Made by a program: the position numbers and the translations under genes. A stretch of DNA of 64,000 nt from Gnetum montanum (taxonomy: Eukaryota > Plantae > Gnetophyta): positions 380,590-444,589 of the forward strand of contig MNCI01001153.1 in assembly GCA_015680685.1 (NCBI GenBank), read 5' to 3'. The notes below the pieces were generated by a model. The model did not search any database, was not told where the DNA came from, and worked only from the letters and a program-made list of their open reading frames with translations. Below, piece by piece: positions 6,481 through 64,000 of this stretch (within the stretch, counting starts at the first letter, position 1; each line of letters opens with the position of its first letter).

Positions 6481-6509
6481 ATTTTCTATTGTGGAAAAAA
6501 AAAATTGAT

Positions 6510-16243: not shown

Positions 16244-16262
16244 TCCCCAGCAACAGTGCCAA
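16244..16262 (-). promoter_or_regulatory. primer binding site, tRNA-Asp(GUC) type
   Basis: TTGGCACTGTTGCTGGGGA is a CpG-decayed TGGCGCCGTTGCCGGGGA, complementary to the plant tRNA-Asp 3' end and characteristic of Athila. Confidence 0.9.
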
Positions 16263-26744: not shown

Positions 26745-27723
26745 TCTAGATCTTATGATTTTGGTATGTCAAAACATTAAGAAAAATGGAAAACAAGTGT
26801 GTTTGCTTGTCTGTTGTACTTACAAGACAAGAACTTGGATTGGGCAAGGAACGATGCATTCATCATGTAAGAGAAAGTGAAGAAATATGTCTCTAAGAAG
26901 CAATAGGCATCTTGATAGATTTGGAATGAACTCAGAGAAAATATAGAAATATGTCTTCAAAAATAGCAAGACATCCATATCTAGCCAAAGATGCCTTTCA
27001 TGAGGCAAAGATGTCTTTATAGATTGCAGAAAAAATGTAGAAAGACATCTTCCATTGAGCAAAGACATCTTCTAGGATGGAGACTTCAAAAAGATGTCTT
27101 TCAGGAAACAAAGACATCTTCCTATATTTGAAGCCAAACTCAAAGAGATGTCCTAGACACAAGAAATATGTAAGCATTATTGTATTCATTGTACAATCAT
27201 TTCTAATCATTGAATTCTTTGTTACTCTTCATTGTCTAATCATTTGGGTGTTGTAAAGTTTGATGTACCTAACTGTGAAAAGATCAACAAATTGAGTTGT
27301 AATCATTTCTTATATTTCTTGTTCTTATTGCCTTGAGGGGTTGAGTTCCTTAAGCTTGTTGAGATCCTACAGGATTGAGTTGTTTGTGCTACAATACAAC
27401 ACTCCGGTGCAAAGCTCAAAATTGTAAAGGTTGTGAAAGTCTTGAAACCACATTTCCAAGCCTAATGGGACCTTGCAGGGTTGAGTGATTGGTGTTGTGG
27501 TACAACACCTCGAAGCAATGCTTGACAACTGTACAAGATGTGGACCCTTCAATCACAATTTAAGAGCAACAAAGTCTATAGGTGTGCTTGCAATCTATCC
27601 TCTAAGTGTGGAGTACCCAAGTTGGGAAACCACATAATTTTGTGTGTATGTGCTTTGTTTTTTTAAGTTTTAATTTGGAAAACTTATTCATCCCCCCACC
27701 TTTTCTAAGTTCAATGATCCACA
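26745..27723 (+). repeat. 5' LTR of SIRE-like element
   Basis: Direct repeat of 32045-33160 containing an AAGACGTCTT-derived motif array. It lacks a ~90-bp segment that includes the TATA-like box. Confidence 0.93.
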
Positions 27724-27725
27724 AG

Positions 27726-27737
27726 TGGTATCGGAGC
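27726..27737 (+). promoter_or_regulatory. primer binding site, tRNA-iMet
   Basis: TGGTATCGGAGC, 2 nt after the LTR-terminal CA. Confidence 0.93.
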
Positions 27738-27759
27738 GTAATACTCTTTGTTTCATCAT

Positions 27760-29620
27760 CAACTTCAAGAGTGAACATTGGAGGGGACTTCTTACACAAA
27801 GCCATCCATGTTCAATGGATTTGACTTCACCTACTAGAAATCCATAATGCAAGGATTCTCTAAATGGAGTTTGAAGTCTAGGAGTCAATGTTGGAAGGCT
27901 ACACTCCACCCATCGATGGTACCACTATCATCATCAAACCTCACAACATATGGTTACAGGAAGAAAAGGATAAGTTCATGTTTCATTCAAAAGCAAAAAA
28001 TTATTTATATTGTGCTTTGAATAAATCTCAATTTAGTAGGGTACCAAGATGTAAAACAACCAAAGAAATTTGGCAAAATTTAGAAGCTACTTATGAAGGA
28101 ACCTTTATTGTTAAGTAATCGAAATTGTTAATTCTACAAAGTAAATATGAAAAACTCAAAATGTGTGAAGGTGAGAAAATTAAGGATTATTTTTCTAGAG
28201 CTAACGATCTTGTTGTAGCCATTAGAGGAATAGGAAAAGAGTTTCCCAAAAGTAACATCATCATCAAAATGATTAGAACTCTACAACTAGAGTTCAGGCC
28301 TCAGGTCACAACCATGGAGGAAATTAGAGATTTCTCAACTCTAAAATTTGAAGTACTTCAAAGTTCTCTCATTGCCTATGAAATGAATCTTATAAGAAAG
28401 GGATAAATTCAAGAAAAAACTATTACTCTAAAGATTGTCTCTAAGGAGGAGGAGGTCAATGAACATGATGAGGATAGTGAAGAGGAGATTTCCCTTCTCA
28501 CCAAGAAGCCTCAATGAATAATTGCTAGAAAGAACAAAGGGACATATTTATAAAGATTTAATTAGCCTAAAGGTAAAGAAAGAGGTAAGAACTTTTTGAA
28601 CTCTAACTTAGATTTTTCTTCTATAGAATATTGGATGTGAGGAGGTAGAGGCCATGTGGCCTCCAAATGTCCTAGTAGCCTCAAGATGTAATATAAGAAC
28701 AAATCCCTTGAAGAAGCAAAGAAAAAAAACTTCTATACAAGTTGGGATGATGCAGGAAAAAGTGAAGAAGAAGTGGGGAAGGATGTAAAAAAATTCTTAG
28801 CTCATCTGCATGGCCCTCACTAATGGTGATTCATTAGACAATGAACTAAATGATGATGAAAGGTATGATTTATTATGTAAAGAAATTTTGAATTTTCAAA
28901 ATCTTTGTACTAAGTTAAATAAACAAGTTAAGTCTAAAGAACATGAAATATCCTTATTGAATTTACCTATTTCTAACCTTGATAAACAACTCTTAGACCT
29001 AAAGTTTGAGAATGAGAAGCTAACCTTATCTTTAGAACAAGCCAAAGTGGAAGTTGCAGATGTTAAACTAATAAATGAACTATTAACAAAGGGAAATGAG
29101 TCCCTTTAAATGGTACTTGAACAAGGAAGAAGCCCACAGGACAAAAGTGGACTTGGATGTTGGCACGAAAAAGAGGAACATTCTTCTCATCTAAAGGAAC
29201 CATCAAAGAATAAGGACTCTACATCAAGGGAAGCTTTTGTTCAACATAAAGCTCCTCAAAGGTTTTGTCCTTCTAGTTATTTTTCCAATAGGAGAATTAG
29301 ATGTTATTATTGTAACAATATTGGGCATAAAAAAAGGGAGTGCAATCTAAAGTTTTATCATATGTGTACACAAGACTCCTTGGTCTTATCAAAGTGCATC
29401 AAGAAAGGGTTTTATGCAAGATCACAAAGAATATTGGAAGTTAACCCAAAGGACCAAGGCTATCAAAAGGGAATGGAGAATTAAATAGGATCAAGGGCAT
29501 TAGGAAACTTTCCTTAACAAATTTGTAAGAGGAAGTCATGCATTGGACATTGGAAAAGCTCGGTTCAAAGGAGATTCCTCAAAAGAGGAAACACATTCCT
29601 TAGCTCTTTAAACACCATCA
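27760..29620 (+). pseudogene. gag: SIRE-type gag with coiled-coil extension and zinc knuckles
   Basis: PSMFNGFDF, KAKNYLYCAL, YEGT, KYEKLKMCEGEKIKDYFSR, LIAYEM; coiled coil 28810-29109; DKSGLG; CYYCNNIGHKKREC knuckle. Confidence 0.9.
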
Positions 29621-30014
29621 TCTTCTAATAGCATTGCAGGTAGGTAGAGGTAGTTTTTATTTTTATTTTCAAGGTTTAATTAAGACTATAAACCAATGGC
29701 AACCTTCCAAAACCTCATTCTGACTACGTCTTTCCAAAGTGAAAGACGTCTCTACAAAGACATCTTTGGAAAAACAAAATGTTTCTCTGGTTTTCTATTT
29801 GTTGTGGGAAAGACATATTTGATGAATGAAAGATGTCTCCTAAATTTTTACATGTAAAAAATATGTCTTTCTATCAAAAAAGATGTCTCATTTTTTGTCA
29901 AAACCCTCATTTACCCATAGTTATAATAGAAAAAATCCCCATTTTGATGTATTCTTCCATAGAGATCCCACAAAGACAACTAGGGCTCCGCCATTCATAG
30001 TGATTTTTGTAGAG

Positions 30015-31591
30015 ATGGCCCACAAGCAGGTTGGTACATCTAGAAATCCTTCCAAGAAATGAGCAAGATGAAATTGTAGTAGTGTGCCACCCTCATACAC
30101 TCCTCAATTTCATAATTCAGATGCTTAGCATAGGTTTGAAATGAAAAGAACTACTAATATTGTTTCTAAGTGTTCTCTTAATTTTCCTTTGCATAAACAA
30201 CAAGCTTTGATGGATTATTTTAAGCTTTTAAACTGGACTACATTCATTTCCATGAATTTTCTTGTGCTTGAAGTGTTAATTTGATAATTCTATTATGACA
30301 TTACTATTTATGATGCTACTGTAGGGTCTTTTACATCCACTGTTGGTGGGATTATTATTAAAGTATCTCTTCAACTTATTAATGCAGTTTTGGGCATTTC
30401 TAGTCTTGATGTCTTTTGGGTTACTATAGAGTCTATGCATGACATTTACACAAACGGTAGCATGCCCATAGCTCATTATGAATTCTATGATGTATTATTT
30501 GGGAGAGATATGTCTTTTGATTAGGATCACATTGAGTAGAGCAAGATGATTCTAGATGCATCCAACTTGTCACTTATTGTTTTGTATAATATAAAGGTAA
30601 AGGGAGGCAGTTATAGTTATCTACTGCTAGCCCAAGGCTATGTAGTCTATTGTTTTCTTATAGGGTTACCATTAGATCTAGGGCACACCCTTTGTAGAGA
30701 CATTCTAAGCCTCTATGCAAAGGAGAGAATCCTTGGGCATTCTTACCTCATTAGCATGTTGATCTATAAGAAGGATGCACCAATTCTAGAGTTGACTTTG
30801 TTTAAAGGTAAGCAAAGTCTTGGTGAGTATGCAAAGAAGAGGAGTTCTTCTCACACAGTAATAGTAGGACCTAGCACTAGATCACCAATATAAATGAAGA
30901 AGGCCTCACTACGGTTGAGAAGATCAAAATCTTCTAAAGCTCATGTTCATTCCTCTTTAAAGAGGATGTTTAGACCCATTTCCTAAGCCATTGCGAAGCT
31001 CAAGAGGAACCTCTCCTACTTTTGTAAGAGCTTAGATGAGGTTGGGATTCCTCCTCCCTCTGATAGGTAGGTATTTGAAGAGGTCACTACTCCTCCCATC
31101 TCTAATAGCAAGGAGGATGCTCCTATTCATCCACTCCATTCTTCAATAATAGGCCCCTCATGTACATCAATTTAGGTATGGAGTCAAATTCTGAGCTAGA
31201 GGCACACCTAGCTAGTATTTAGGGGAAGCATCATGCTTCCATGCAGTAGCCAAAGCACCATATTCTAGTTCTTCCTACTTTTACTGCTCCATCTCATGTT
31301 GATGCTCTTATCTCTTTTAAGCAACAAGCTATGGAGAGAATCTTTGGGACCACATCCCAATGGGTTCCAGTTCAATAGTTGCCAACTCCATCAACTCCGC
31401 TAGCTTCCTTTGGATTTTCAATGAAGCTTTATCCTTGGCAGGCTCCAATGCAGCGAGTTGATTCCTCAGATGAGGACACTTAGAAATCCAACCATCCCAA
31501 CACTAATAGTCATGACAATGAGGAGACTTATCATCCATCTCGAGCAATGGTGGATTTTGAATCTAAGGATGTTACCAAGGTTACTGATTGA
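30015..31591 (+). pseudogene. SIRE env-like accessory ORF (putative plant transposon protein domain)
   Basis: MAHKQVGTSRNPSKK*AR*; LI**FYYDI...TSTVGGIIIKVSLQLINAVLGI; PLDLGHTL...LGHSYLISMLI; Pro-rich and acidic tail. Confidence 0.75.
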
Positions 31592-32044
31592 GACCTTCGC
31601 AAGATGTTTTTTCTCTCCTTTTTGTGAACAAAAAGGATAAAATATTTTGTGGATCTCACATATGTTATTTTGGGATTTTGCACATATATGATTGATCAAT
31701 GGATAGTGTACTCCTAGATGCTTCTAGACAATTTGATGTAAAACATTTTGTGGATGGTTATGGATAGATGGTGTATTTTCTAATTATCTCTATGTGGTCT
31801 ATTGATTTTTATTTTGCCTCTTTTACTTAACTCACATCCTATTGATCTACCATTCTTCTCCTAATCCCTAGTTGCCATAGAAATTTATATGTCTTTATGC
31901 TTTTCTTAGAATATCTTTTATGATCATTATGTATATCTATTACTATATCTCTAAAGGTTTGAGCTTTTTGGTTATGTCCAAAAGGGGAAGAAGGCTAAGC
32001 TAATCCATTTTCTTAAGTTTGGAGATTATTGAAAAAGGGGAGAT

Positions 32045-33160
32045 TGTGGACCTTATGGTTTTGTTATGTCAAAAAATTAAGAAAAATGGAAAACAAGTTT
32101 TTTTTCTTATCTATTGTCCTTACATGAAAGGAACCTGGATTTGACAAGGCTATGAACAACGAATGATGCATTCATCATGCAAGAGAAAGTGAAGAAATAC
32201 ATTTGTAATCATGCAAGAGAAAGTGAAGAAATACATCTCTAGGAAGTAGTAAACGTCTTGGTAGATTTGGGATGAACTCCAAAAAAATCCAAAAAGACAT
32301 CTTCAGAAACATTAAGATGTCTTTCTCCAACTAAAGACATCCATCATGAGGCAAAGACATGTTTATAGATTACAAACCAAATGCAGAAAGATGTCTTCCA
32401 TTGAGAAAATATGTCTTTTAGGATGGAGACTTCAAAAATATGTCTTTCAAGAAATAAAGATGTCTTTCCAAATTTGAAGCCAAATTTAGAGAGACATCTC
32501 AGGCACGAAAAAGACATCTCCCACAATCGTTAGCTAGCCATTGCACAAGTTTCGAGAAGGATTTAGCAACACGATAGCTATAAGAAGACTCATGTGCATT
32601 AGGAAATGTGCAAGCATTGTTGTATTCATTATATGATCATTTTTAATCATTTAATTCTCTATTTCTCTTCATTGTCTAATCATTTTGGCTATGCAAAGTG
32701 TGCTATACCTAACTTTGCAAGGATCAACAAATTGAGTTGCAGTCATTCCTTGTATTTCTTATTCTTATTACCCTAAGGGGTTGAGTTCCTTGAGCTTGTA
32801 GGAATCCTACAATATTGAGTTTTTAGTGCTGTAGTACAATACTCCAATGTAGAGCTCAAGATTGTAAAGGTTATGGAAGCCTTAAAACCACATTTCCAAG
32901 CCTAACGATACCTTGTGAGGTTGAGTGATTAGTGTTGATGTACAACACTCCAAAGCATAGCTTGATGACTATACCAAGTGGGGGCCCTTCAATCACAATT
33001 TGAGAGCAACAAAGTCTAGAGGTGTGCTTGCAATCTACCCTTTGAGTATGGAGTACCCAAGTTGGGGAACCACATAAATCTGGGTGTGTATACTTTGTTT
33101 GTTTAAGTTTTGATTTTGGGAACTTATTCATCTTCCCCATTCTAAGTTCAATAGTCCATA
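32045..33160 (+). repeat. 3' LTR of SIRE-like element
   Basis: Starts TGTGGACC after PPT GAAAAAGGGGAGAT, ends GTCCATA before the TSD, and carries a short tandem duplication at ~32175-32240. Confidence 0.93.
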
Positions 33161-34417
33161 GGTAATTGGCCCTTTCTTTTGGTTGGTTACATGCCTAATT
33201 GTAGTAGTAGTGTTGGATTTCCTCTAAGGGATAGATGTCAAAGGAAAATAACCCCAAAGAACCCTCAATACATGATTTAGATACATTATTCCACATTACT
33301 AAAACATTCTTTGTATTTTCCTTCTATATTTTCCCTATCATTTTCTTTATGCATAATGTCAAATGTTACAAATATTTAATGTTTTCCATAACATCCAAGA
33401 ATAGAATTTCACATTTGACATCAAAGAAAACCATGATCCAAGAACCAATCAAAATCAAGGATCAATTACAATCTAATGATGAACCATGGAGTCATGGCCT
33501 AGGGTGCATCATGTTCAAGATGGACCTTACCAACTAACAAGATTCCTTCTAAAATATTTTCACTAATATCAATACTAGGAGATCTTATTAACCTTTAACA
33601 AGATACATCAACTATGAGAAAATGTAGTAAGATAATAAGAAAACCTAGTAAGATAATGCTATTACACAACAAGGTTGCAAGGCTCTGTCATGCAACATTG
33701 TGATTGAGCAGGCTACTTGTGACTTGCTAGGTAGAGCCAAGCCCTCCTACACATTGTCATCCTTCTCCATACTACTATCCTTATGAGCACAACCATCCTC
33801 TTGTGCATTTACTCTTCCATGTCACCATCCTCTTATGCACTATTTGCCACCCACTATCTTTGCTTGACCTACCTACTACCACTATCCCCATGTCTCTTCC
33901 TACTACCACACAAACCAGAAATCCTTACTTTTCTACCACCATCATTACCTACCTCTACAATTTCCATCATTTCCTATCCTTTACCATTGCTTTACCACTG
34001 GTGCTAAAAATTTCAGATCCATGGTCCTTCTTTGGTGACCTCGACCACCATGAACATCATTGGATACTACCTATTTCAATTACCATGATGACCTTGAGCA
34101 TTTTTGGATACTACCTCCTATAGTAACCTTAGCCATCATGAGCATCATTGGATATTGCCTCCTGTAGCAACCTTGACCATCATTAGCATTGTCAAATACT
34201 ACCACTTTCAACAATGTTGGTATCTAAACCTTTTTTGTTAATTGATAAAAACTTTAAAATATTTGTCAATTGATGGAAAATTCTGAAATCCATCAAATAA
34301 TGAAAAAATTTAAATTTGACATTTTGGTAGATGGGTGAAAAATTTAAATTTCAAAAGTAGCCAAATTTGACCATACAATCAAATTAATAGGTTGGCAACA
34401 ACTGAGATACAAATTTT

Positions 34418-34470
34418 ATAAGTGAGCTTGTCCTAGAGTAGTACTAAAATGGGTGACCTCTCAAGAAGTT
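34418..34470 (+). other. 5S rRNA-derived fragment (internal promoter region), Cassandra-like or 5S pseudogene piece
   Basis: TAAGTGAGCTTGTCCTAGAGTAGTACTAAAATGGGTGACCTCTCAAGAAGT versus plant 5S TAAGCGTGCTTGGGCGAGAGTAGTACTAGGATGGGTGACCTCCTGGGAAGT. Confidence 0.75.
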
Positions 34471-37400
34471 TCAAATTTCATGCGCAAAGTTTAGGACTTC
34501 AAAATCAATAACATTTAAATTTTGAAGTCTTTTTCAATAAAAAAAAATGTCATTTCTAATACATTTTGATTCTCCAAATGTAATGGCAAAGTCAAATCTA
34601 CCCCATGAAGCTCTAAAAATTAGTTTTGACTCCTTGCATCAAAACTATGCCTTGAGATTCTCATAAATGTAATTTAGCATAACCCAAACATATGATTTCC
34701 ATTTATAACATATGAATAATCATTTCTAGGATTTTTAGGCCTTCTAAACTCAATGGTAAGATTAGATTGATCATCTGAATACCTGATATTAGATTATAGT
34801 TTAAATTGTACCTTAAGAGGTCATAACTTGGACTAACTAACCATGCCTACAATTTAATTGTTGAGACTAATAAATGTAACCTCTTGGAATATCTTGTACC
34901 TTAATATTAGGTGCTTAGGTTATGTAGATAGAGAGTCCTAGGTCACTGACCCCTAGTATGTCATTAGTTATACTATTGAAGTCAATGTCCTAAGTGGGGT
35001 AGGAAGGTTGTTATGAGTCCAAGATGTAGCTACTTATTGCCAATCCAATAAATTGATTATTTGGAGAATTAGTTGATGAACTAGAATGATAAAAATATGT
35101 ATACCAATTCAATCTACAACCCTACCATGTAGTAAAACATCAAATATAATCATAATCTTATTTTGACAAGGTGTATGATACCCATGAAAAGAAATGACCC
35201 AAGAGAAAATCCAAGAACAAAAATGAAATTTATAACATACAACATATTTGTAAGGTTCTTAGCTAGGGAAAGATAACATTCTCTATGTCCACCTTGGATC
35301 TTGTACTAGCACAAGTATTTTTTACTCATGTATCCTAGTAGAGTTATAAGATTTGAATGCTGATATCTTGTGCCTACAAGAAGTCTTACCATGGGAATTA
35401 TTATACCAATTCCAAACCAATCTAGAAAAAAGTTTGGATATGGAGGTGTTTATAAGAAAAAAGGTTCTTGTTGAAGTTTTTCCTTTAAGCTATATAGATT
35501 ATCCTATTGCAAGGATCATAACATGGATGGTTATTTGATCTTTTATAAATAAGCCAAGTTCAAATTGGTACAAAGATTTGAATGGAGATTAGAATATATA
35601 ACTTTCAAATTTCAAAAACTTCAAATCATGAGAAAGAAAGAACAATCAAGATTCTAGATAAGCCACATAACCTTGGCATTGATATTTAAAATCTAGTTAT
35701 TAGGAAGATGTATATATGTGATCAACGTACATTTAATTGCCAAATTAACATGTTCAAATGTTAGACTTTCTCAAGTAACCTATTTGATTAATTAAATAGA
35801 TGAAAGATTAAGAATAAACTATTCCTAACCCATACCAATCTTAACCCAATATCATTCATTCTCTATGGAGAGTTTAATGCAAAACTTAGAAGTTGGGTTT
35901 ATTAATTCTTAAAATATGAACATGTAAAAGAATCCTTAGAAGAGAAAGCTAATTTGAAGAGGATGTTCCCATCAATTCAACATGCAATTCCATTAGCCAA
36001 TGCATATTCCACTTCAAATCTTTAACAGAAAAGTCAAATTCAAGAATTCAAGAATAGATAATGTTGATGGATAGTACTCATCAAGAATCACAATTCACCA
36101 ACTAGACTACCATGACTACTGAAGATAATCAACATCATGCTTCATCAAGATCCTAGACTATATTTGGTATAATGCCTAATTCTTTCAAGTTATCAAGTTA
36201 TTAGAGTTAATTTCTAAGGAAGAATTTAAGAAGTAAGATCAAGCCCTACCATCCTTAACAAGGCCATATGACTATATACCTCTTATCGAAGAACTATAAC
36301 TACATCACTTAATTCCCAAGGTTGATAATAATCAGGGAGACTATTAACCTTACTTTTATTCATAGCCTTCCTATTTTCTTCATTGTTTAATTTATATTTT
36401 AATTATGGAAGTAAAATATCTAGGGTAATGTAAGCTAGAAATAAATATTTGTTCTACCTTCACTTGGATAACCAAATACGAATTACACTTTGTGTGACCT
36501 TGGTTAGGCTTGGTGATCGGTGGTTGGTAGACCTTTAATTTACCTCTTGTCACTACCTTAGAGAATGAGGTAAGTATTTATAAAATAATATTTAATTTTC
36601 AAATATTCTTCTCACTTATATTTTGTTTGTAGAATAAGTGGGAGAACATTAGGATATTCAACAACATTTTAAAAGGAGAAATCAAAGCATTAAAGCATGG
36701 AAGGAACATGGGAGCTATAAAAAGATCATGTACATGGACTCATTTGAAGATGAATAAAACCTAAGGTAAATATATTTTCACATCACCATTCCCAAATGCT
36801 ACTACTCCATAACAAAATGATCTCTCTTCATAACAAGTAATGCAATTATTGTAATAAGACTCAAAAGGGCAAGTTGTAATTAAGAATTAAAAGGATGAAT
36901 TGTAATAATAAGCATGTCTCTTGAGGTGATATTTTGGGATTTAACCTAAGATATTTATACCTATACATTAGATGTCATATCAACATGAAGTTGCAAGATT
37001 GATAAAGGCGGGTAACAAGTGTCAAGTGAACCTATATAGGAAGGTCACTAGTCATTCCCTTTACCATGGTATAGGCCTAACCGTGATGGTAGTGTTAGAT
37101 TGCCTCTATGAGACAAATGTTGAAGTAATCTAACCCCAAGGAACCCTTAGATCATGACCCTGATATATTATTCCACATTAATAAAGCATTTTTTTATTTT
37201 TCTCTTAAATTTTCACTATTATTTTCTTTACACATAATATTAAATGTTATGAATATTTGACATTTTCCATAACGTCCAAGAACATGATGTCACATCATGG
37301 ATCACTTTACAAAAGATATCTAGTCTTTTATGATAAATCAAATGATGTTATCAAAATTTTTCATGGCCTACAATGGAGGTCGTGTTGAATAAGAAAGATA

Positions 37401-38235
37401 TCCTTGGAATCCACACTAACAAAATGATTAACTTTGCCTTTTGAGTCATCACCATCTAGCTAGAAAGCCTAGTTCTATGATTGAGAAATTTACTGGAATG
37501 AAAATAAGATCACAATATGGAAACTAGGTTAGAACATTTATTAACATCCCATGCATGAAATATAACTCAGAAATAAGCTAAAATCTAGAAAATAATAACA
37601 AAATATTTAGATCAAATCAATCATTTCAACAAATAGTTGCTAAACAAATAGAAATTGGCCAAAATAATATGCACTCAAAATCAAAGTATCAAAATTCATA
37701 AAATGAAAAAAGGCATCAAATTACTTTACCTAAAAGGACATTGCTAAAGAAAAAGCCTTCACGTGGCTAAGGTCTTCAAAATAGGCTCCAAATCATAGGC
37801 AAAACCAAAAGTCAACAATAGGATCTAAATAAAACCTAAACAAGATCTTAAACTAAGGCCTTACTAGGATCCTAGTTGATAGCATACATTGAGATCTAGC
37901 TTTTCTCCAAATCAACAAAGTCTCTCTCTCTAGTTTTATCTTCCATATGTCAACTATGCAATTGGATGATCTCTCAAGAAATAGTTATCATGTATTTATG
38001 CTTGTAAGTGTTTGGCATGGTTAGGATAAAAGGGTAATCTCTTGGAAAAACTAAAAAATAAAATGAAATTCTAATTTTAAAAATATTTTTAAATTATTTT
38101 CTAATATGAACTAGTACCCAACATTGTAAAGGTAAGCTAATAGCTATGACTAAACCCAAGTTGGTAGCTATGTCTAAGCCTAAGCTAATAATAAATTCTA
38201 TGGTCAAAATCATAACTAACAAAAATGAAAACATG

Positions 38236-39059
38236 TGATGAATTATGATTTATTAAGTTGTGATATCGTGCCCATGATATCGCGGCCTAGCTCACGATAT
38301 CATATACACGATATTGTGGCTCCTGTGCAGGCCTATAAATAAACCTTAGGCACACAATGAAAAAGGGGAGCTTTTTAAGTTAAAAATTAGTTTTCATTAT
38401 TAGTTTCCTCTCAAATATTTTCCCCTAGTGCATGCCCATAGTGTGATGATTCTAATTATATGGCACCTTTATTTGAGTGTGATGTACTTGGACATGCACA
38501 TGACCAGAAATAAAGATTGAGATTACTTCATCATTGCAGCATTCACTTAGTTTAATTATTTAATTGTTATTGTTATTTATTGCTCTCGTAGTTAATATCT
38601 CTTCACCCTAAACTCCTTAAACATGGAATGAGTATGACTTAATCACAAGCATTTAAGTGTGACTACTTGGTATCCCAGTAGCGTACCTAGGCCATGCACT
38701 TGGTAACACTAGTGGTAGTTGTGCACAAGGTCCAAGATGTGTATGGATGATTAAGGAACGAATGCTCATCGCACTTAGGCTAGCTTAGATTCTCTCTCCA
38801 TATTCCCTCTTAGTTAAATTAAAGTTATTTTCCATTGTCTCTGGGAGTAGCACTAGGATAGAAACCACATCATACACCTCACTTTGGACTAAACCATACA
38901 TGACAAAGCAAATACTAGTCCAAGTGGGAAGACAGTGAACTACGATCAGTGAGTAACTATCTAGATACCACAACTAGCCCATCTACGGAGTTCGACCGGA
39001 TCGTGTGTGAAACGCTCGTATTCGTATGGTTGAGTGTAGGGATACCTCACCACTCATCA
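38236..39059 (+). repeat. LTR (complete)
   Basis: TGATGAAT...ACTCATCA, TATAAATA at ~38335, followed by a degenerate Asp PBS TTTGCATCATTGCCGAGGA. Confidence 0.92.
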
Positions 39060-39657
39060 TTTGCATCATTGCCGAGGATGATGCTAGTTATTTAGATTAG
39101 TTACATCATACAAGACCGTTGTAACAAAGTATTCACGATAGATCTTTTAGAAAAGAAATTAATTTTAATTAAGTCACACATGGTTCACAACAATATCTCT
39201 CTCACAAGCCTCTGACAACACAACAATGAGTAAGGCAATTCATTGGAGAACCAACAAATTATATGATGATGAAGATAAAGTTTGAAGTACTCAACCTGAT
39301 GCAGGAGACCCCTACATTCATGAACACCCCAACAATACTCAAAGACTTTTGTCATCCAACTTTGACACCTCTAGTAAGGATGAGATATCCCATAGAACAA
39401 GGAGGTCCGAAAGGCCTAGGAACTTCTCAATAACTAACAAGAATTTGTTAGGGGATGATTGGAAGACTTACAAAAGTCATAACGAGTTTTACAGTTCCCT
39501 CTCTTCCTCTACTCCTTCAATGTCATATTGTGACACGGATGACTATCTTTGAAGGGATTAGCATAGAACTAAAAACTGACCTCACAAAGAAAATTAGAAC
39601 ACCAACATGAACAAGGACAACATCCTCCAAACGCACAAATTCACAACCCACTTAGTG

Positions 39658-40458
39658 ACGATATTGCATATACGATATTGTGAGCTAGGTTGTGTTATCG
39701 CGTATGCGATATCATGGCTCCTATGTAGGCCTATAAATACACCTTATGCACATAGTGAAAAAGGGGAGTTTTTTTATTTAGAAATTAGTTTTCATTGTTA
39801 GTTTCCTCTCAACTCTTTTTCTCTAGTCCATACTTCCAGTGTGATGATTGTAATTGTATGACACCTTTATTCGAGTGTGACGTCCTTGGACATGCACATG
39901 ACCAAAAATAAAGATTAAGATTACTTCATCATTGCAGCATTCACTTAGTTTAATTATTTAATTTTTATTGTTATTTATTGCTCTCGTAGTTAATATCTCT
40001 TCACCCTAAACTCCTTAAATGCAGAATTGAGTACGACTTAATCACAAGAATTTAAGTGTGACTTCTTGGTATCCCAGTAGCGTACCTAGGCCATGCGCTT
40101 GGTAACCCTAGTGGTAGTTGTGAACGAGGTCCAAGATGTGTATGGATGATTAAGGAATGAATGCTCATCGCACTTAGGCTAGCTTAGATTCTCTCTCCCT
40201 CTTCCCTCTTAGTTAAAGTAAAGTTATTTTCCATTGCCTCCAGGAGTAGCACTAGGATAGAAACCACATCATACACCTCACTTTGGACTAAACCATATGT
40301 GACAAAGCAAATACTAGTCTAGGTGAGAAGACAGTGAACTACGATTAGCAAATAACTATCTAGATACCACAACTAGCCTGTCTACGAAGTTCAATCAAAT
40401 CATGCATGAAATGCTTGTATTCATATGGTTGAGTGTAGGGGTACCTCACCATTCATCA
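39658..40458 (+). repeat. LTR (5'-truncated duplicate)
   Basis: Matches 38270-39059 and is followed by PBS TTGGTGTCATTGCCAGGGA. Confidence 0.9.
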
Positions 40459-40591
40459 TTGGTGTCATTGCCAGGGATGATGCTAGTTATTTAGATTAGT
40501 TACATCATACAAGATCACTATAACAAAGTATTCATGATATATATTTTAGAAAAAAAATAAATTTTAATTAAGTCACACACGATTCACAACA

Positions 40592-42864
40592 ATGTCTCTC
40601 TCACAAGACTCTGACAATGCAACAACAAGGCAATTCATTGGAGAACCAATAAATTATATGATGATAAAGATAAATTTTGAAGTACTCAACCTTATGCAAG
40701 AGACCCCTACGTTCATGAACACCCCAACGATACTCAAAGACTTTCGTCATCCAAATCTGACACCTCTAGTAAGGATGAGATATCCCATAGAACAAGGAGG
40801 CCCAAAAGGCCTAGGACCTTCTCAATAACTAACAAGAATTTGTTAGTGGATGATTGGAAGACTTACAAAAGTCATAAAAAGTTTTATAGTTCCCTCTCTT
40901 CCTCTACTCCTTCAATGTCAGATTGTGACATGGATGACTATCTTTCAATGAATCAGCATAGAACTAAAAATTGAGCTCATAAAGAAAATCAAGAATGCCA
41001 ACATGAACAAGGACAACATCATCACAACGCACAAACTCACAACCCACTTAGTGATGATGAACCCCTTCTGGCCACTAAGAGCCTAATACCTATACAAGAG
41101 GCCACTCGAATATCCTACACACATCACAAGGAAAGCCATCTACCCACGCTTAACTTAAACAACTTTCCTAAGTTTTTAGGAGGCTACAATTTAGATTTGC
41201 AACATCATCTACAATCCTTCCATGATGCCTATGTATGGAACAATGTTGATAATGNTGAAAAAGTATGGTATAGGTCCCTAAAACCAAAATCAATCTGACA
41301 TTGGCCAATAATGGTAGAACTCTTCAACGAAAGATATCAAACTTATGCAAGAGTGTCAACCTTGAGGAGACAAATCCAAGAATGGAAACAAGAGCAACAT
41401 GAATCCTTGGAAACGGCCTTAGAAAGATATTATGCATTGTTAGACAACTGCCTAGGCCATGGGTTCTTCGAGGAAAGGCTAATGTACCATATCATTGATG
41501 GGCTTCGTAATGAAATAAGGGAGACCCTAGGGATGTATGCCCAAGGTTGACTATATAAGCTATGAACCCATCAATTCCAAGAGCTTATCAAGATGGTAGC
41601 AAAAGAAGAAGGAGAAATGGCTAAATGGGAGAATGCTAAAAAATCTCAACAGGCCTAAAAATCAACAATGACCCATGATTATGAAGAGGAGGAATCAACT
41701 CACTACAAGAAGGTGGAACCATATTTGCCAGTACTACAATCATTAGATGAAGTTAAGCCAAAGATCAATAGCATGATGGAATGGATACATGAAAAATATG
41801 GAGAATATGCGAACAATAGTAAAGGCACAACTATGCCAAATCAAGAAACAGGATAGGACACCACACAACAATCAGAACAAAGGATAGAATATAATAAGAA
41901 TAAGAACTCAATTGCCAACTTCACATATCAATGCAACATCTATCTGTACAATCACCCCAAAGGCCAATGCCCAGTTTTGTCACATTTACATGAGCACTAG
42001 GGAGGAATGTTACATCCAAATTTCATACAAAAATATTGGGTTCAACCATAATGACAAAAGCCCCAATCGTGCGGGAGGCCATCACCAACCCAACCATATC
42101 CTTTATATGTCCCAATGCCAAATACTTACTATGTTCAACACCCTATTTCTCCAACTAGATCAACATCCTCTACTTCACCTCATCGTTATGATTCTCCAAA
42201 ATACTATCCACTCATAACCTCTCCACTAAGGTTGCCACCTCATGTACCTTACATTTTTCCTCAACAACAACATTCTCATCCTTCACCTCCTTCTACATCG
42301 CCACCAATTGTTCTAGAGGGTTTTGCACCACATCACCAACCCACAATGTTACTTGTGCTACTACTAAAAATAGCAGTGGAAACCCACCACACCAAATGTG
42401 TCCCTTCTTTAGATGTGACCATTGAAAGGAACACCTCAATTCCGAAACCACTACATCCACCAACTCAGCACAAGTCCAACACTGTGGTGCATCTTCCTCT
42501 TCAAACCCAACATCTCATGTTACCTTATCAGGGCCACCACTCAATACTTCAACAACTATGTGACCTAATGAATATAGCCATATGGGGAGACATGTTGATC
42601 CTTGCATACCATCTTACAGTCACAAGTACCATAGTGGGTCAACTCCTTATAAATTAACCACATCTTATAACTTGCCCCACTATGTCAACTCTAATTAAGT
42701 GTGTGAACCCCAATGGGGTAAGTATGATCGGGTCCCAATATTTTCAACATGCAAGGATCCCAACCTTTGATTTATTAATTCTAGCCATGCTCAACCATTT
42801 AGCTATGGAGGGTATCCTCCATTCTAACAACATAGAATTAATAAATGTTTTTTTGTTTCTTTAA
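40592..42864 (+). pseudogene. gag: gag with Pro/Ser-rich extension
   Basis: MSLSQDSDN start; MVELFNERYQTYARVSTLRRQIQEWKQEQHESLETALERY gag core; homologous to 14121-16121. Confidence 0.88.
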
Positions 42865-50904: not shown

Positions 50905-53825
50905 GTCCTTATGGCAGGCTTATAAGACACCTAAACTTAGAATCAATAGACTAGGAATCATCTACTCATGACACTGTAGCATCCCTGGAAACATCCCTAG
51001 ACTAGCCAAAACATCTGGTCCAATCCTTAGACTTATAGGCACCCTCTCAGTGAAATCTCCATAACTACAACTAAAGGTGAAGTAAAAACCTTGAAAGTTG
51101 GCTCCCTATTACAACCACAGGTATGCCAAGACATTTCCAAAGTTCTCCATGACAATGTTAAAGTCTTTGCATGGTCATATGACAACATGCTGAGCCTAGA
51201 CCCATGGCTCATATAACATAACTTTCTCTTAGACTCGTGTGTCAAGGTAGTCAAGCAATCAAACTAGAGATTGCACTAGCTGTACACAATGAAATCACCA
51301 AGATCTATCAAGCTAGTTTCATCCATGCAGTCGATTACTCAAAATGGGTGTTGAACATCTTTGTAGTTTCTAAGAAAATGAGAGGCATATGAATTTGTAT
51401 AGACTTTCGAGATCTGAACAAAGCAATGATTAAGGATGACTTTCCATTACCAAGCATTGATCAACTCATAGACACTATGACTAGTCATGCCTTACTATCC
51501 TTCATAGATGGGTTTTCACGCTACAACCAAATTCATATAAGCCCAGAGCATTAGTTTTCAATCACTTTCATGACCCCTTGGGGGACGTTTTGTTATAGAA
51601 TGATGCCTTTTGGACTCAAGAACACTAGAGCAACCTACCAATGAGCAATGACATACATTTTTAGCTACTACCTCTTGGAGAGATTAAATGATTACATGGA
51701 TGACATAGTAGTCAAATCTAAGAAATCTATTGATCATCCCAGTGATCTAGATGTAGTCCTCAAACATTTTCATAGGCATGACTTGCATCTCAACCCAAGG
51801 AAATGTGTTTTTGGAGTTAAAACTAGACACATGCTAGGGTTTGTAGTGTCGGAGGCAAGGATACGAGTGGACCCTGATAAAGTTAAGGTCATCATTAGCC
51901 TAGCACCACCTACCAACCTTAAAGAATTGTGTGAGTTGCAAGGTAGAATATAGTTTATCAGAAGGTTTATCATGAGTTTGACAGAAAAACTACACCCCAT
52001 GCAACACCTACTCAAGAAGGGGGTCAACTTCGAGTGGATAGAACAATGTCAACAAGCCTTTGATAAAAAAAGAATTTTTGCACCTCCCAACTATTTACCC
52101 ACCATAGAGGGATAAGGATTTCTATGTCTACCTTGCCACTTTGAACACATTTATTGCCACATTATTATGTCAAAAGAAGGATAGCTTATGAGGCAAAGCA
52201 TAACAAAGTAGAAAGAAATTGTCTTACCTTAGTATTTGCACTAAAAAAGTGGAGACATTACCTATTCTGTAGCAAGGTCAACATCATATGCAAGAACAAC
52301 ATACTTTGGGCTATCATAAATAACTTATATGAGATCAGTAGGATAGCCTGATGGAAAGCTATAATGGTAGAATTCGATTTACATTACGTTGCACAATCAT
52401 TAACAATGAGTCAAGAAATAGCCGCACAGTTTACAACTAGCCCCGCAATGAGAATGTCATAGCAGATGCACTAGCCATGTTATCATTAAACATGTCACCA
52501 CACCTGTTTGTAACTTTACCTACTTTGATAAAAGAATGCACTAATCCTATTACTCAAGCAGTACACATTGCAGCTGTTAGTGCCACCAATATCCAAGAGT
52601 GGTATGCTAACTAAAGATCTTATCTTCAACATGATGGACCCCCACATGGCTTGACATTTACCTAAAAGGATGCAATATGAAAGCAGGCTCGGTAGTATGT
52701 CCTTATAGGAGATAACACCTTATGTAAATGCTCCTTTGATGGGATATTGCTAACCTACATAGGTGGGGAAGTAGCGCAAAAAATTGTTAAAAAAATCCAT
52801 GAGAGGCTATATGGAGGACACATAGCCTCTAGGGCTATGGGAATAAAAATCAGATGCCTAGGGTACTACTGGCCTTGCATCGAATAATATTGCCTTGACA
52901 AAGTTAGGACATGTGATGTATTTCAACGTCATGTAAACCTCATTCACGTATCGCCTACTGAGTTACACCCTATGTAGATTACGTGGTTGTTCCAACGTTG
53001 GGGACTAGATATCATAGGACCCATCACGCCTAAGTCTTCTGAAAGGCAAAGTTTCATTATCATCACAACTGAATACTTCACAAAGTGGGTGGAAGCTATT
53101 CCCCTAAGGAAGACTACATCTAAATAGGTTTGCCACTTTATCTTGGATAACATAGTGACAAGGTTTGGTCTTCCCATGACTATTGTGATAGATAATGGAC
53201 CACAATTTAGTAGCACAGAAACCAAATCCTTTTGCAACAACCTTGACATAAAACAATCCTTTTCATTGTCATACTATCCATAAGAAAATGGTCAGGTAGA
53301 GGAAACAAACAAGGTTTTCATCAACCTACTCAAAAAGATGCTCAGCAGTAGCAAAAGGTGGTGGCATGAGCAAATCCTCTACGTGTTGTGGGCTTACTGT
53401 ACAATGTGTTGAATGGCTACAGGTAAGACTCCTTACAGTCTTTTTTATGGATCTAAAGCAATACTACCTCTTGAACTGCAAGTACCATCACTTCGAATGT
53501 CATGAATGAGGCTCAAAACAATGAGTCAAGGATCATCGATCTTGACTCTGTAGAGGAGCGTGCTCAAACACTAGGCCACATTGAGTGGTACCAAGACAAG
53601 CAACGGCAAAAGCTTCACTGCAACCTACATCAACGGCCAATCCAAAAAGGGGACCTAGTCCTCAAGGCTATCCGTGAGCCTATAAACAAATTTTTAGCAA
53701 ACTGGGAGGGCCCTTTTATAGTCATAAAATCCTATGAGCATGGGGCCTTTAAAATGGCTGATATGGATGACAATGAGTTTGCAAATCCTATCAACCATTT
53801 GTATCTCAAGCCATACTACGTCTAA
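50905..53825 (+). pseudogene. pol: Tat-type pol: RT, RNase H, mostly deleted additional RNase H, integrase
   Basis: VFAWSYDNM.SLDP, DFRDLNKA..KDDFPLP, DGFSRYNQI, MPFGLKN, YMDDIVVKS, KKWRHYL, PRNENVIADALA, WGLDIIGPI, DNGPQF, WEGPF; ends LKPYYV* at 53825. Confidence 0.93.
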
Positions 53826-58300: not shown

Positions 58301-59089
58301 TAGCAAAGCCAGCATGGCTAGCAATTGCATGTGCTACTATTAGACTTTCATGTGCTATCAATGAACATGATATTATCCATAGTGCTTGATAGTGTTGTGA
58401 ATTATTTGATCACTTTGCCCAAGAAGATAACCTCATTTATGGAAATTTAGCTAGCAAATGTAACAATTTTTAAAAAATTAAATATCATAAAGTCTATCCC
58501 TATATCAATTTTCAATGCTTATGATTGCCATGGATGACTTGCAAATACCTTGAATAACTAACATTTTAAAATGGATAAATTATGATATATTTGAGGTGTA
58601 CACATGAAATCCATGATCTTTTTTTTTTTTTGAAAACTATTATCATCATAATGATTTTTCATCCAATAATCTAACATGTATAGGATGACTTTTACACATG
58701 AAGTAAATTTACATACCAATGTCAATAGGTATGCATTAGATCAATGTGGTAATAGTAATACTAGATCAGACCATGGTAATGTAATCTAACTCAAGCCCTT
58801 ATTCATAAGACAATTAAGCATATGGGCATCATGGAATGATAACCAATATATGTAATTTGGAAGTATCTCCATCGTGCCTCAACTACCATGTATGCACATG
58901 CATGATATCATACATCATTGTCCACACATACCAATGTTAACAACTATACATTAGATCAATAGTGGATCAAACCATGATAAGACAATCTAACTCAAGCCCT
59001 TGGTCATAAAGCTTTTTTTAATGGCATTGCTCTAGCAAAGTATTGCTCAATACCATTCCCAAGTCTAAAATTAGTGAAACAACCTAGAG

Positions 59090-62000
59090 AAAACCCAAGA
59101 TGGACTACACCTCAATAGTCATAACACCTACACATATAGCATAAGCACATGTCACCTATTAGTCCATGAGTTAGGAGCACATCAAGTATGCTACATGAAA
59201 CCATATAAGTAACATGACCAACATGACATACATAAGTAATGACCACAATAAGCACGCACAACCATAAGAGTTAGCATTCGCCTAGAAAATCTAAGACATG
59301 CTCCTACTCTAATGTATCTAGCCCTAAGCACTACTCGTAAAGAGGAGGATGGTAGCCTAAGCATCAAAGCCAAAAATCCTATGTAATCCTACATACCCTT
59401 ATGATGAAGTACACAAAGGAATTAGGGCTAGTTTAGTTCTTTGATAATGGTTGTAACCATGCAACCCATGAGGATATCCATACTCCTTTGGTTCTAGTTC
59501 TGGAAGAAAATAGCCTTTCATCTATTAACAAGGCATGTTTTCATACACTTTCCAGTACTTGAAGGAAGTGACATTCTCAAAGCTAAATTATTTATCCATA
59601 CATCTCTTCAAATGTGAAAAGCATAATGGATATTGAGGGTATTAAATAACTTAAAACTCATTTGAAAATTATAGGTAAGAAGGTTCAATAACTAGGATAA
59701 TCCATCATAAAGCACAAATGTTGAACTCAACTTAACATCCATTCAAGACTTATAGATGCTCACACAATCCATGTTAAGGAAGAACATGCTTGTCCCTTTT
59801 CTTGCAAATTGTACCAACCTTTCTACCTAGAACATGATTCACTTCAAATATGAATCTTTTCCTATACTTGTAGTGATATAGAGGTGTAGTCTTCCAAAGG
59901 AAATCATTCCTTTTTTTTAATCCTATGCTTTTTATTGGAAGATGCATTCTCAATCCTACACTTCTTACTCAAAGACATCATCACAATCTAGTGCTTCCTA
60001 CTCAAAGAGATTTTCCAATCCTATGCTTTCTACTCAAAGATGCAATCATAATTCTACACTCCTTGCTCAAAGATGTAGTCAAAATCCTATGCTTCCTACT
60101 TGAATACATAGTTACAATCCTTCAATTCCTACTCAAATATATAGTTAGAACCCTATGCTCCCTATGCATAGATGTTGTCAAGAACATATACCACCTAGTC
60201 AAGATCAAAATCAACAACATATACTTCACCAACCTCTAATCCACTAGTTATTCAAGAACAGATACCTTTTTTAAAAAAATTCCTCTACTCAAAATCAATT
60301 CATGAAGAAAGTAGTTGCACCAAGTTAATCATGTTTTGATCCTCTTGGCACTCATTTTCTTGATTAAATACCAAATCCTCCACCTTGTGCTAAGGTGGTT
60401 AAGCCCTCATGAATTTTTTGAAAGGATTTGAAAATTCTCATATCTTACTCTTCATCATCCCCATTAGAGATCATCTAATGATCATGAGGCTGATGGTCAA
60501 TTGCATTCAACCTATGATTCTCATCTAGTCTATAACCACTACTTTTGATTTGAAGATTTTGAGAGCATTCTCAACTAGGATGTCCTCCACCACAAATGTA
60601 GCATTTTAAGCCTCAACTCCTTGGAGGATATTAAGAGAACCCTTCAAAATGTAGTCGTTTGTTCCATGACTTCTACTATTCTTTAGAAGCCTAACATTTC
60701 CTATGCTCCTAGGATGAGTTTTTTTTTCTTCGAGTTGGCTTGACATAAGAGCCTATGAATCCACTTGGAATCACTTGTCCATCACCTCTTAAAGATTTAT
60801 TACTTTCTTTCTTACTATCAAGCAATTTCTCAACTGTATCCTTATCCTTCTTTACTAGCTTGTAATTAGACAAAGTGATTGCAACATAGATGGCCTTCCT
60901 GAATCTTGCGATTTTGCAAGTTTTGAGCTCATGTTGGATCCAAGGATTGAGCCCATTGAGAAATCATCTATTTGTTGTTTTCATCAACTTTTGGAATTTT
61001 TATGATCATAGTTTACTATTCTTGAATATACTCCTCTAGGTATCCTATGTATCAGAACTCCTTTAGCTTTGCCTAGGCTTTGTTAATGAAATTGTTGAGA
61101 TGTAAGTTATCAATCAAAGTCTCCTTGAACTGGTTCCATGGTCTAATGGGTTTGCCTATCCTAGTCTTTTCTTCTTAGAGGATGCCAAGCCATCCGGTCT
61201 TTGCTAATCCACCTAAGAATTTGACAACAAAGCAAGCTTTTCTTTTAGTGGCGCATTCATACCTCTCTAGAAACTCATCTATTTTAAATAGAGATGTATT
61301 TATCATAATATCATTCTTCATAGATTTTTGGTTCCTTTGCTTGAAACTTGGAAATTAATTGACTTGATCCAAATGCTAGTGGCCTTAATTGCATGGTCAG
61401 CTAATCTTTCATTACCCTAATCTCATCATCTAATTTCTTTTCCAAAACCTCAATCTTATTTTGTTGGCTTTCATACAAAGCCTACTAAGTTTCTAGCAAT
61501 GAATGAAAATTTTGATTTTCATCTTAGAGCTCTTAGTTTCCAAGCCGAAGATTATCAACAACATCCCCAAGTTGCTCCACCTGGTTCCTCAACATAAATT
61601 TTTGAGTTAGGGCAATTTTTTGTTTTATGCTAGTGCCCAAATTTGCAAGGAAAGGAACATCCATTGGATCCACTAGCTTTTGAATCATACAAGCTTTCTT
61701 ACCTGCAGGTAAATTACACATGATGATATTTTCTACTTGCAATGAATGGCTTCATAGTTATTGTATATTTTTAGGGGATTCATTAATATATCCTCATATA
61801 TAGTTGGTTCATTATGAGGATTAGGACCAAAAGGAGGAGTATAAGATTTTGGCTCCCTTGGCTCTTCTTTTTGTACGCCATGTAGCACATGAGTCACAAA
61901 AAAAGAATCATGATTACAAACCACATGCCCAAAATCACCACTAGTCTTGAACCATAAACCATGGCTCCAATGCTAAGTCTAACAACACTGCTCTGACGAA

Positions 62001-62620
62001 ACATCATTCAGCATCGTTCTTGAGTCCAAAATCAACCAAGCAACATAAAGTGGACCTAAGATGAACTATGCCTCAACAATCATAGCACCTGCACACACAT
62101 CACCCATTAGTCCATGTGTTAAGAGTGTATTAAATATGCCACATGAAATCATATAAGTGACATAACCAACACAACACATACAAACAATGACCACAACAAG
62201 TACACACAACCATAAGAGTCAATGTTCCTATAAAAGAGCTAACACATGTTCCTACTCAAATGTATCTAGCCCTAATCCCTACTCTTAAAGAGAAGGGTGG
62301 TGGCTCAAGCATCAAAGTTGAAGCTCCTCTACAAGCCTACATATCCTTGTAACAAAGTATACAAAGGAATCCTGACTAATGTAGTTCTTTGATTATGGTT
62401 ATGATAGCATGGAACCCTTGAGGAAATCCATGCTTCTTTGGCTGATATTCCAGAGGGAAAAACCTTTGATCCACCAACAAGGCATTTTCTCCTACACATT
62501 TGAGCATATGGGCATCATGAAATGATAACCAATATATGCAATTTGGAAGTTTTTTCATTGTACCTTAACTACCATATATGCCTATTCATGGTAGCATGCA
62601 TCATAGATGCATCATTGTCC
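59090..62620 (-). mobile_element. decayed gag-only Ty3/gypsy-like element between ~450-bp direct repeats (59100-59550 and 62060-62500)
   Basis: PBS-like TTAGCATTGGAGCCATGG at ~61960-61977; gag-like PWNQFKETL...FLNGLNPWIQHEL; CYICGGGHPS*EC knuckle at ~60570-60605; no pol. Confidence 0.65.
59919..60182. repeat. 33-bp minisatellite, about 8 copies (AATCCTATGCTTCCTACTCAAAGATG...)
   Basis: Periodicity is directly visible. Confidence 0.9.
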
Positions 62621-62807
62621 ACCATGAAGGAAATTCTAAGTATATCATCATACCAATAGATAAAAAGTGGAAAAGAAACTTGAACTTTCAATCCTTCAAA
62701 AATTCTAAGTATATCTTCATACCAATAATTAAAAAGTGGACAAGGAACTTGAATCTTCAATCTCTTATTTGAGATTCAAAATGCATAATACTATTCTATT
62801 TGCTTGG

Positions 62808-63750
62808 TGATGAGTGACGAGGTACTCCTACACTCAACCATACAAATACGAGCATGTACACATGATTCGGTTGAACTCCGCAGACTAAATGCCTTAACGC
62901 CACAAGAAACACTTGGGGTTAATCGTTCGTTGTCTTCCCAGGCTTGCTTGTATGTGTCATGGTGTATGGTTAAGCAAGTCTGAGGTATGTGATTTTTTTG
63001 GTATTTTTCAGTTTATCTCCTAAGCTATGAGGGAAAGGGTTGAGAAACTAACTAACTCTAACTAATGTCCTAAGTCTAAATTAACTAGCATCAGCATCCG
63101 TTCCCACTTACTGGACACACCCTGAACTATGCAACTGTGGCTACCAAACGCTAATCGTTACTGGGATCACCACACGTAACGCAAGTTCTCGAAGTGGTCA
63201 TACTGAGGCACCTATTTAGCCTAAGTGTGATAAGTAGCTGATTCCTTGGCTAGCCGTACACACCCGTGGATGCTCGTAGCCAAGTCGTACTTATCACACA
63301 TTCTAGCCTAGCGATGAGCAGCCGATTCCTTGATTAGCCGTACACATCCGTAGATGCTCGTAATCAAGTCATACTCGTGCGCACTAGGAAATCAATAAAT
63401 AACAACAATAATTAAAACCATGTACTACAAGGTTTATCCAATCAAGTTCGTCTTTATTGTCGTACACAACTTGTGTTCAGGTTACAAAGTTGCTCGAATA
63501 AAGAGCCGTTCACTCTAGGACTCCTACTGCGGGCACATGGGAAAAATTCTAACTCTGGAGGGATCAAACTGCCAGAGCTTCGCTACTTCTATCCAGGATT
63601 CAGAAATGAAGGGAGTGCCACCTCTTATTTATAGATATGGTGACGGACCGCGATATCGCGTACACGATATCGCAGGGAAAGATGCGATATCACGGCGGCC
63701 ATGATATCGCGTACACGATATCACGGCACTATGCATGTTGCGTCTCATCA
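62808..63750 (-). repeat. young 3' LTR of an Athila-type element (related subfamily); internal region runs off the window end
   Basis: TGATGAGT...TCTCATCA; PPT reverse complement TACCCCCATGACTGAA at 63751-63766, identical to 9485-9500; CpG-rich. Confidence 0.93.
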
Positions 63751-64000
63751 TACCCCCATGACTGAATGAAAACTCATCCTTGAGTTCCTTACAATGATAT
63801 CAGGTAGGTATGGGATTATTGAGGGGGAATCGAACTAATGGAATGACATGTGAACGGTTCCTTATTACAAGACTGGACACAACTGGTGTTCATGACAAAA
63901 AGGGAGAACACCTTATTACAATGACATCAGGCCACAATTGGTAGCTGAGAGAAAAGAGAAGAGAGAATAGAAGAGAAGAAGAGAGAAGAGTCTTGCTGCT

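Follow-up and report, generated by a model that had tools for sequence, protein, structure and literature searches.

Introduction

LTR retrotransposons make up a large share of many plant genomes. Many families of the Athila lineage lack pol and need to be copied in trans. In Arabidopsis, pol-less Athila families with the layout LTR-gag-second ORF-LTR have been described as dependent on other families and are thought to be mobilised in trans; the accessible part of that account describes no RNA structure in the LTR (PMC2410132). Our literature search, which covered mainly papers outside subscription journals, found no description of an RNA structure in Athila U5 regions or LTRs and no defined RNA signal for the choice of what is packaged.

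In other LTR retroelements, cis-acting leader RNAs are a known kind of element. As far as the accessible part of the source goes, retroviral leader signals include palindromes and GACG tetraloops, the dimer linkage of BLV overlaps U5, and the packaging region of MuLV is a set of neighbouring hairpins, SL-A to SL-D (PMC5874298). Ty1, of the Copia superfamily, has 5' cis elements (a pseudoknot, PAL1/PAL2 and a proposed Psi), a stretch of RNA structure near the 5' end that is preferred by Gag (PMC8396678, in part). Plant retrozymes are non-autonomous, Ty3/gypsy-dependent elements whose LTRs of 300-400 bp carry a hammerhead as a conserved RNA motif, together with a tRNA-Met PBS and no coding region (PMC4918200, in part). 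Sirevirus LTRs contain a hairpin-forming, fast-evolving palindrome region in their cis-regulatory part (PMC4728375, in part).

Here we describe a covarying RNA module, repeatable as a unit, in the U5 of a high-copy Athila-type family of Gnetum montanum. The module is of the same known kind, a cis-acting leader RNA of an LTR retroelement, and is apparently undescribed so far. It was analysed in a window of 64 kb, by which we mean the whole stretch of DNA under analysis. By analogy, the module would be functionally closest to retroviral leader signals such as the MuLV region, although it is no member of them by sequence, loop or position. It shares with SL-A to SL-D a place in the structured 5' leader of an LTR retroelement, neighbouring hairpins and a tetraloop ending in ACG, and a palindromic hexamer in the insert of one copy (B1, below) can be likened to the MuLV dimer-linkage region. 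In contrast to MuLV with its conserved GACG, the module has UACG or CACG loops, lies in U5 before the PBS and has a pair of internal loops as its fixed part; there is no sequence homology to the MuLV packaging region as given in the accessible part of the source, and the role of the module is putative (PMC5874298). Like the Ty1 elements it is located near the 5' end, but those elements form a pseudoknot, overlap coding sequence and are not repeated as a unit (PMC8396678, in part). With retrozymes it shares the conserved RNA motif in the LTR of a non-autonomous plant element; unlike retrozymes, its hosts have no hammerhead core, LTRs of 825-950 bp, a tRNA-Asp-type PBS, and gag and a second ORF. 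Retrozyme identity was rejected on the hammerhead, the non-coding interior and the tRNA-Met PBS. The Sirevirus palindromes resemble the module in forming hairpins in a fast-evolving plant LTR, yet their counterpart here is a repeat cluster at 63640-63736 and not the U5 module (PMC4728375, in part).

Host elements and their LTRs

The window is repeat-rich and CpG-depleted (GC 0.36, CpG observed/expected 0.24) and contains six related Athila-type LTRs, all of which carry the module, in eight copies altogether. Element A, on the minus strand, is bounded by a 5' LTR at 16263-17131 (A5) and a 3' LTR at 8629-9487 (A3) that are 87% identical, and its internal region (9488-16262) holds a broken gag and a second ORF (ORF2) placed 3' of gag, as in the Athila lineage. 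The gag matched Retrotrans_gag (PF03732) above the cut-off, and no zinc knuckle was found in it; ORF2 gave a weak match to Transposase_32 (PF20167, E 8e-6) that lies below the cut-off for PF20167. The preliminary description of this DNA, made from the letters alone, had spoken of pol-less copies, and for the element at 8629-17131 this was borne out: no pol domain (RT, RNase H or integrase) was detected in the three sense frames of element A, and the RT, RNase H and integrase fragments of the window, used as queries, had no match in elements A or B.

LTRs B1 (38235-39059) and B2 (39625-40458) lie on the plus strand and are about 77% identical to those of element A. A tandem duplication of LTR and leader at 38235-41058 (~1.4 kb, 90% identical) is located at the 5' end of element B. 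LTR D (~2300-3250, minus strand) is old and decayed, with 58-62% identity to the other LTRs where alignable.

LTR C (62808-63750, minus strand, ends TGATGAG/CTCATCA) represents family C, which is high-copy. Its CpG observed/expected ratio is 0.97, against 0.24 for the window. Because a polypurine tract (63751-63760, minus strand; same context at 9488-9500) precedes it and no PBS follows it, LTR C is a 3' LTR, and its interior falls beyond the window. From sequence, a TATA-like box at 63626-63633, the putative promoter, and an AATAAA poly(A) signal at 63453-63458 were located on the same strand. Read ends running past 62808 continue into a tRNA-Asp-type PBS in runs X21, X22 and X24, and degenerate copies of the PBS follow the LTRs ending at 16263, 39059 and 40458. 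We take a PBS of this type to be a mark of the Athila lineage. Judged from sequence, both the PBS and the arrangement of gag and second ORF would assign the host to that lineage.

The best-conserved part of the LTR across families is the last ~80 nt of U5, not the module, with a three-way identity of 0.79 in the last bin against 0.30 overall. These conserved U5 ends are located at 62808-62885, 16263-16338, 8621-8707, 38982-39059, 40380-40458 and ~2300-2370.

Integrase remnants occur on both strands (5018-5999, minus; 6376-7376, plus). The minus-strand one is ~2 kb upstream of LTR D and its module copy, which share its strand; no PPT or clear LTR start links remnant and LTR. Another gypsy element left a broken pol (RT, RNase H, integrase) at 51645-53825 on the plus strand, and the covariance model described below finds no module nearby. 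One or more copia elements at 26485-37295 carry gag, a zinc knuckle and a further ORF that matches Transposase_32 weakly; the copia repeats there contain no module by the covariance model, and ORF2 of element A showed no similarity to the copia ORF at 30540.

Architecture of the module

Eight instances had been listed on the sense strand of the elements in the preliminary description, and all eight were found in place. A structure-anchored parse gives the module the order P1 - CGA/UGA - P2 - CGA - P3 - apical part - P3' - GU(A/C)YGGN - P2' - GAA(U)YGGN - P1'. The earlier view that the stems change compensatorily around fixed loops holds for P2, which is Watson-Crick at 60 of 60 pairs over the eight copies, with four different sequences and two lengths; part of the supposed loop, however, is a third helix, P3, formed partly from the CGAGCAU and RUGUGUACGG blocks. 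The two internal loops are alike and have the same orientation.

Three units lie on the minus strand of LTR C. Short unit 1 (63310-63382) comprises P1, loop A, an 8-bp P2 (63368-61 paired with 63336-29), loop B, a 5-bp P3 and a UACG tetraloop. Short unit 2 (63226-63298) has a 12-bp P1, an 8-bp P2 (63284-77 paired with 63252-45), a 5-bp P3 and a CACG tetraloop, which is replaced by UACG in 19-48% of reads or contig depth. The long unit (63086-63211) has a 6-bp P2 (63197-92 with 63109-04) and a 62-nt structured insert. Each of the other LTRs has one long unit: 16549-16697 in A5 of the pol-less element A (minus; a degenerate PBS follows the LTR), 8915-9064 in A3 (minus), 38624-38773 in B1 (plus), 40023-40172 in B2, the tandem duplicate of B1 (plus), and 2610-2740 in D (minus, 6-bp P2). 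The natural minimal short unit is 73 nt long, its insert of 62-82 nt being replaced by a UACG or CACG cap closed by C-G; C(UACG)G and C(CACG)G caps belong to a class of stable RNA tetraloops.

In all four families (A to D) the long unit keeps a similar distance from the LTR end (~280-310 nt, ~280 nt in C). The distance from the TATA box to the module, previously put at ~290 nt, is ~240 nt in LTR C and ~310 nt in the LTR at 16263-17131. The inserts have more than one predicted fold, and perfect 6-nt palindromes were present in one of four inserts examined (copy B1); the short units have NACG loops. Two similar sub-repeats able to pair with each other were seen in the inserts (63122-63183 and the other long units), and in the family C insert four of the five listed variants in predicted stems keep pairing, as scored by eye.

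The P2 of the short units is the 8-bp type of families A and B, not the 6-bp type of the adjoining long unit, and read ends at 63347-63348 reveal expressed relatives that combine an 8-bp P2 of the short-unit type with a long insert. This suggests from sequence that the short units may have been captured from another family rather than formed by simple duplication. Amplification to three modules had been ascribed to the LTR C copy; the three are present, but the state is family-wide and not private to that copy. Unit number also varies, short unit 2 being missing in six reads of X24 (joints), and the best-supported joint for an extra unit is found in 21 reads of X24 and eight contigs of X1. Like the frequencies below, the joint counts are unphased and may mix units.

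Covariation and variation within the family

Pair counts were taken from a six-copy alignment and the anchored parse, because in two MAFFT alignments of all eight copies the short units or the 5' halves were set in the wrong place. The 124 pairs of the P1 core, P2 and the P3 core comprised 108 Watson-Crick, 14 G-U, no A-C and two others. The 14 G-U pairs, the recurrent sense-strand wobbles reported before, are confined to two homologous positions. Among the six long copies, 96.9% of cells are paired and both sides have changed in 5 of 17 pairs. The covariation score was reached by none of 500 shuffles, a control that is inflated by relatedness, and slid controls pair at 27-45%. In simulations of independent drift, the chance that an 8-bp helix stayed intact while gaining two or more double changes was ~0.001 per comparison. 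A covariance model trained on the six long copies, with the two short units left out of training, recovered both short units at E ~1e-8, the next match being at E 0.14. RNAalifold found no covariation in four A/B copies because these are too close; the window holds only ~5 independent sequence types.

Variants over 63080-63400 were tabulated from 24,753 and 20,116 contigs (two DNA runs) and ~830 reads in each of two RNA runs, the RNA runs being raw reads labelled with the same species. The frequencies carry no phase, and some of them may count reads that belong to one unit but were placed on another. At least 40 variants reached a frequency of at least 28%, and among those listed 15 fall in the 100 core-stem positions. 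Sense-RNA pairing is kept by 13 of these 15: four variants make up two double changes, eight exchange Watson-Crick and G-U pairs, and one converts a mismatch to C-G. The two that break a pair (A-C, at 63348 and 63376) are both at helix ends where the alignment of relatives stops. The double change 63281/63248 (G-C to A-U, P2 of short unit 2) has partner frequencies of 0.89/0.87, 0.50/0.49 and 0.53/0.50 in three runs, and mismatched ones in X12 (0.22/0.80); for 63355/63346 (A-U to G-C, P3 of short unit 1) they are 0.24/0.31, 0.31/0.29, 0.09/0.08 and 0.03/0.04. Single-sided transitions among the listed variants were of the G-U type in eight cases and of the A-C type in two, a borderline bias (p 0.055). 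Where the window copies depart from the loop or P3 motif (63112, 63187, 63200, 63239 and 63371), most reads in most runs have the motif letter, and the UGA of the window copies at 63200 and 63371, which recalls a hammerhead, is CGA in most reads. A read end in X1, inspected by eye in 10 contigs, shows two more double changes in P3 together with the loop GACG.

As was first proposed, RNA structure on the sense strand is favoured by the pair counts, the read variants and the six-copy covariation alike, and we consider it probable that this structure exists and is under selection as RNA.

Folding predictions

Sense RNA folds better than its complement in seven of the eight copies. When the copies are folded alone, only three of eight reach a z lower than -2.5 against shuffles, and the fold of short unit 2 is almost as good on the opposite strand (-4.56 against -4.30) and as DNA. 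With the whole U5 folded, P2 is likely in two of the six units tested, namely short unit 2 and the 8915 copy (0.84-1.0), and reaches at most 0.24 in the other four. This result counts against a dominant fold, even if the copies have decayed and predictions of long-range pairing are weak.

Position and expression

Poly(T) read ends at 63433 (163, 325 and 220 reads in RNA runs X21, X22 and X23) mark a poly(A) site on the minus strand, 20 nt after the AATAAA, and with it the R/U5 boundary. Because poly(A) tails attach there, upstream of the module, the module lies in U5, where the preliminary description had placed it. Since transcription products stop short of U5 at this site, the unit would be found only on RNA that begins in a 5' LTR, in front of the PBS; as expected of a packaging or dimerisation signal, the module is confined to the 5' leader of the full-length RNA. 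Over 63091-63376, sense depth in X21 was 97-335 against an antisense depth of 21-75. The sense excess was weaker in X22, X23 had almost no U5 reads and X24 is unstranded, and sense transcription of the module was thus seen in two of three stranded libraries. The reads report the family and not the locus, because they are mostly 85-95% like the window copy.

Candidate functions

We tentatively favour the module as a putative repeated Gag-binding packaging or dimerisation signal of the 5' leader RNA, without holding this to be quite an even chance, because U5 is present only on RNA started in the 5' LTR and pol-less Athila families would be mobilised in trans (PMC2410132). A multivalent protein-binding RNA would be expected to have stems of free sequence, asymmetric loops that stay fixed, an apex it can do without, and units amplified in tandem. 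Each unit would present two similar asymmetric internal loops that run the same way. In one, CGA faces GAA(U)CGGN, in the other it faces GU(A/C)CGGN, and a 6- or 8-bp helix of free sequence would separate them. Pol-less families would need the unit as a tag for copying in trans, extra short units could raise avidity in the competition for particles, and the apical part (structured insert or NACG tetraloop) might make loop-loop contacts between two RNAs. It counts against packaging that most retroviral packaging signals are located downstream of the PBS. The proposed packaging signal of Ty1, at +230-580, also speaks against it (PMC8396678, in part), and so do the gag of element A, in which no zinc knuckle was found, and the near lack of U5 reads in X23. 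As the module is small (73 nt), with free stems, fixed loops and a varying copy number, the packaging question is directly testable in vitro, and the module provides a way to examine whether competition among non-autonomous families works through extra copies of a cis signal.

Possible, but in our view unlikely, is that this RNA structure is bound by ORF2 protein or by a factor of the host and so controls the export, stability or translation of the long leader RNA. All of the structural evidence fits this equally well, and the accessory ORF2 is kept in these families; the leader of element A would need help in translation, because it has 25 ATG triplets in 971 nt. Retroviral export elements may have repeated internal loops, and the CTE of MPMV has a twin-loop layout. 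On the other hand, none of the export-element or IRES families of Rfam matches the module in sequence, and ORF2 is at most a putative RNA-binding protein.

It is improbable that the module is an element of DNA only, its loops being transcription-factor sites and its arms staying complementary through template switching between inverted repeats, in the absence of RNA-level selection. The CGTAC cores in the loops are presumably sites of the SBP-box type, LTR C contains six CGTAC sites, three of them within the short units, most double changes are transitions, and the strand bias in reads is borderline. Against this, two G-U pairs have stayed fixed in families that are 58-79% alike, the loops remain asymmetric instead of forming a perfect palindrome, a tetraloop cap has no DNA rationale, and GUCC often replaces GUAC in the long unit (63114, reads).

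More doubtful again is a role in reverse transcription, in which the U5 fold would aid tRNA primer extension or the first strand transfer, as RNA or as strong-stop cDNA. The similar distance of the long unit from the LTR end in all four families and the folding of short unit 2 as DNA on both strands would suit such a role, but the unit is far from the PBS, the G-U bias favours sense RNA over cDNA, and the upstream copies bring no clear priming benefit. We give very little credence to the 73-nt short unit as a putative new class of small catalytic or switching RNA, in which the two matched internal loops would come together and cleave, or would fold only under certain conditions, just after the poly(A) site. 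Such a unit would stop read-through transcription at the 3' LTR and have no effect in the 5' leader, and family C would have multiplied it to strengthen the effect.

Searches for ribozymes and related sequences

Rfam 15 gave no match at the gathering score over the whole window and seven weak matches in 62800-63760, none of them over the module, in line with the first description, which took the element to be undescribed. The hammerhead core (CUGAnGA and GAAA around a three-way junction) had no match in the six LTRs on either strand, nor had the two strands of hairpin ribozyme loop B, used as a search motif with one mismatch per strand allowed; the module had rightly been held apart from both ribozymes. 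Twister-sister and TS-like ribozymes have 6-nt and 5-nt L1 strands that face each other between two stems (PMC11620745, in part), a geometry from which the module departs, similar strings being found in P1' and the downstream flank and not across an internal loop. Depth was continuous over the module and no pile-up of RNA ends was seen in it, in libraries poorly suited to 5'-OH or cyclic-phosphate ends.

A self-cleaving ribozyme of a new class is the least probable reading. Small ribozymes do typically have conserved internal loops, rich in purines, set between stems of free sequence, and plant retrozymes carry hammerheads in their LTRs (PMC4918200, in part). The catalytic role once proposed, however, is supported neither by a known core nor by a pile-up of RNA ends in the module, and cleavage in U5 would presumably cut the template of strong-stop DNA.

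Run X21 has adaptor-like read ends at two places, 63134 (68 reads) and 63312 (135 reads). Both were rejected as signs of cleavage, being outside the conserved loops and at points where the genome is similar to the 3' end of the putative adaptor. A kink-turn, which requires tandem G-A in a set position, was rejected by eye because the tandem G-A is not so placed.

A pattern scan gave 17 matches in viral contigs, none with a P2 stem, and 115 in metagenomes, none with both the upstream motif and a matching P2. The covariance model, run on 100 of these 132 pattern-matched loci, gave three weak matches, the best ending at a contig edge, and a gag query found no viral locus. Because the viral and metagenome collections hold little plant DNA, these blanks say nothing on other plants, and the finding of the module in one plant group only is to be read in that light.

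Other features of the window

The start of U3 in LTR C (63640-63736), upstream of the TATA box, contains a cluster of palindromic GATATCGCG-type repeats, and similar clusters are found at 17030-17110, 9400-9460, 38260-38315 and 39660-39715. The cluster folds as a hairpin (weak matches to miRNA models) and has many length variants and strand-switch joints in reads. A second hairpin at 62931-62990, in the distal U5, gave weak Rfam matches on both strands. Inside an old element, a 117-nt inverted repeat (9572-9688/10054-10170), 100% complementary and with single Ns at its borders, is probably an assembly artefact. Just past the end of LTR C, 59062-59551 and 62023-62500 form a direct-repeat pair of another element, 74% alike.
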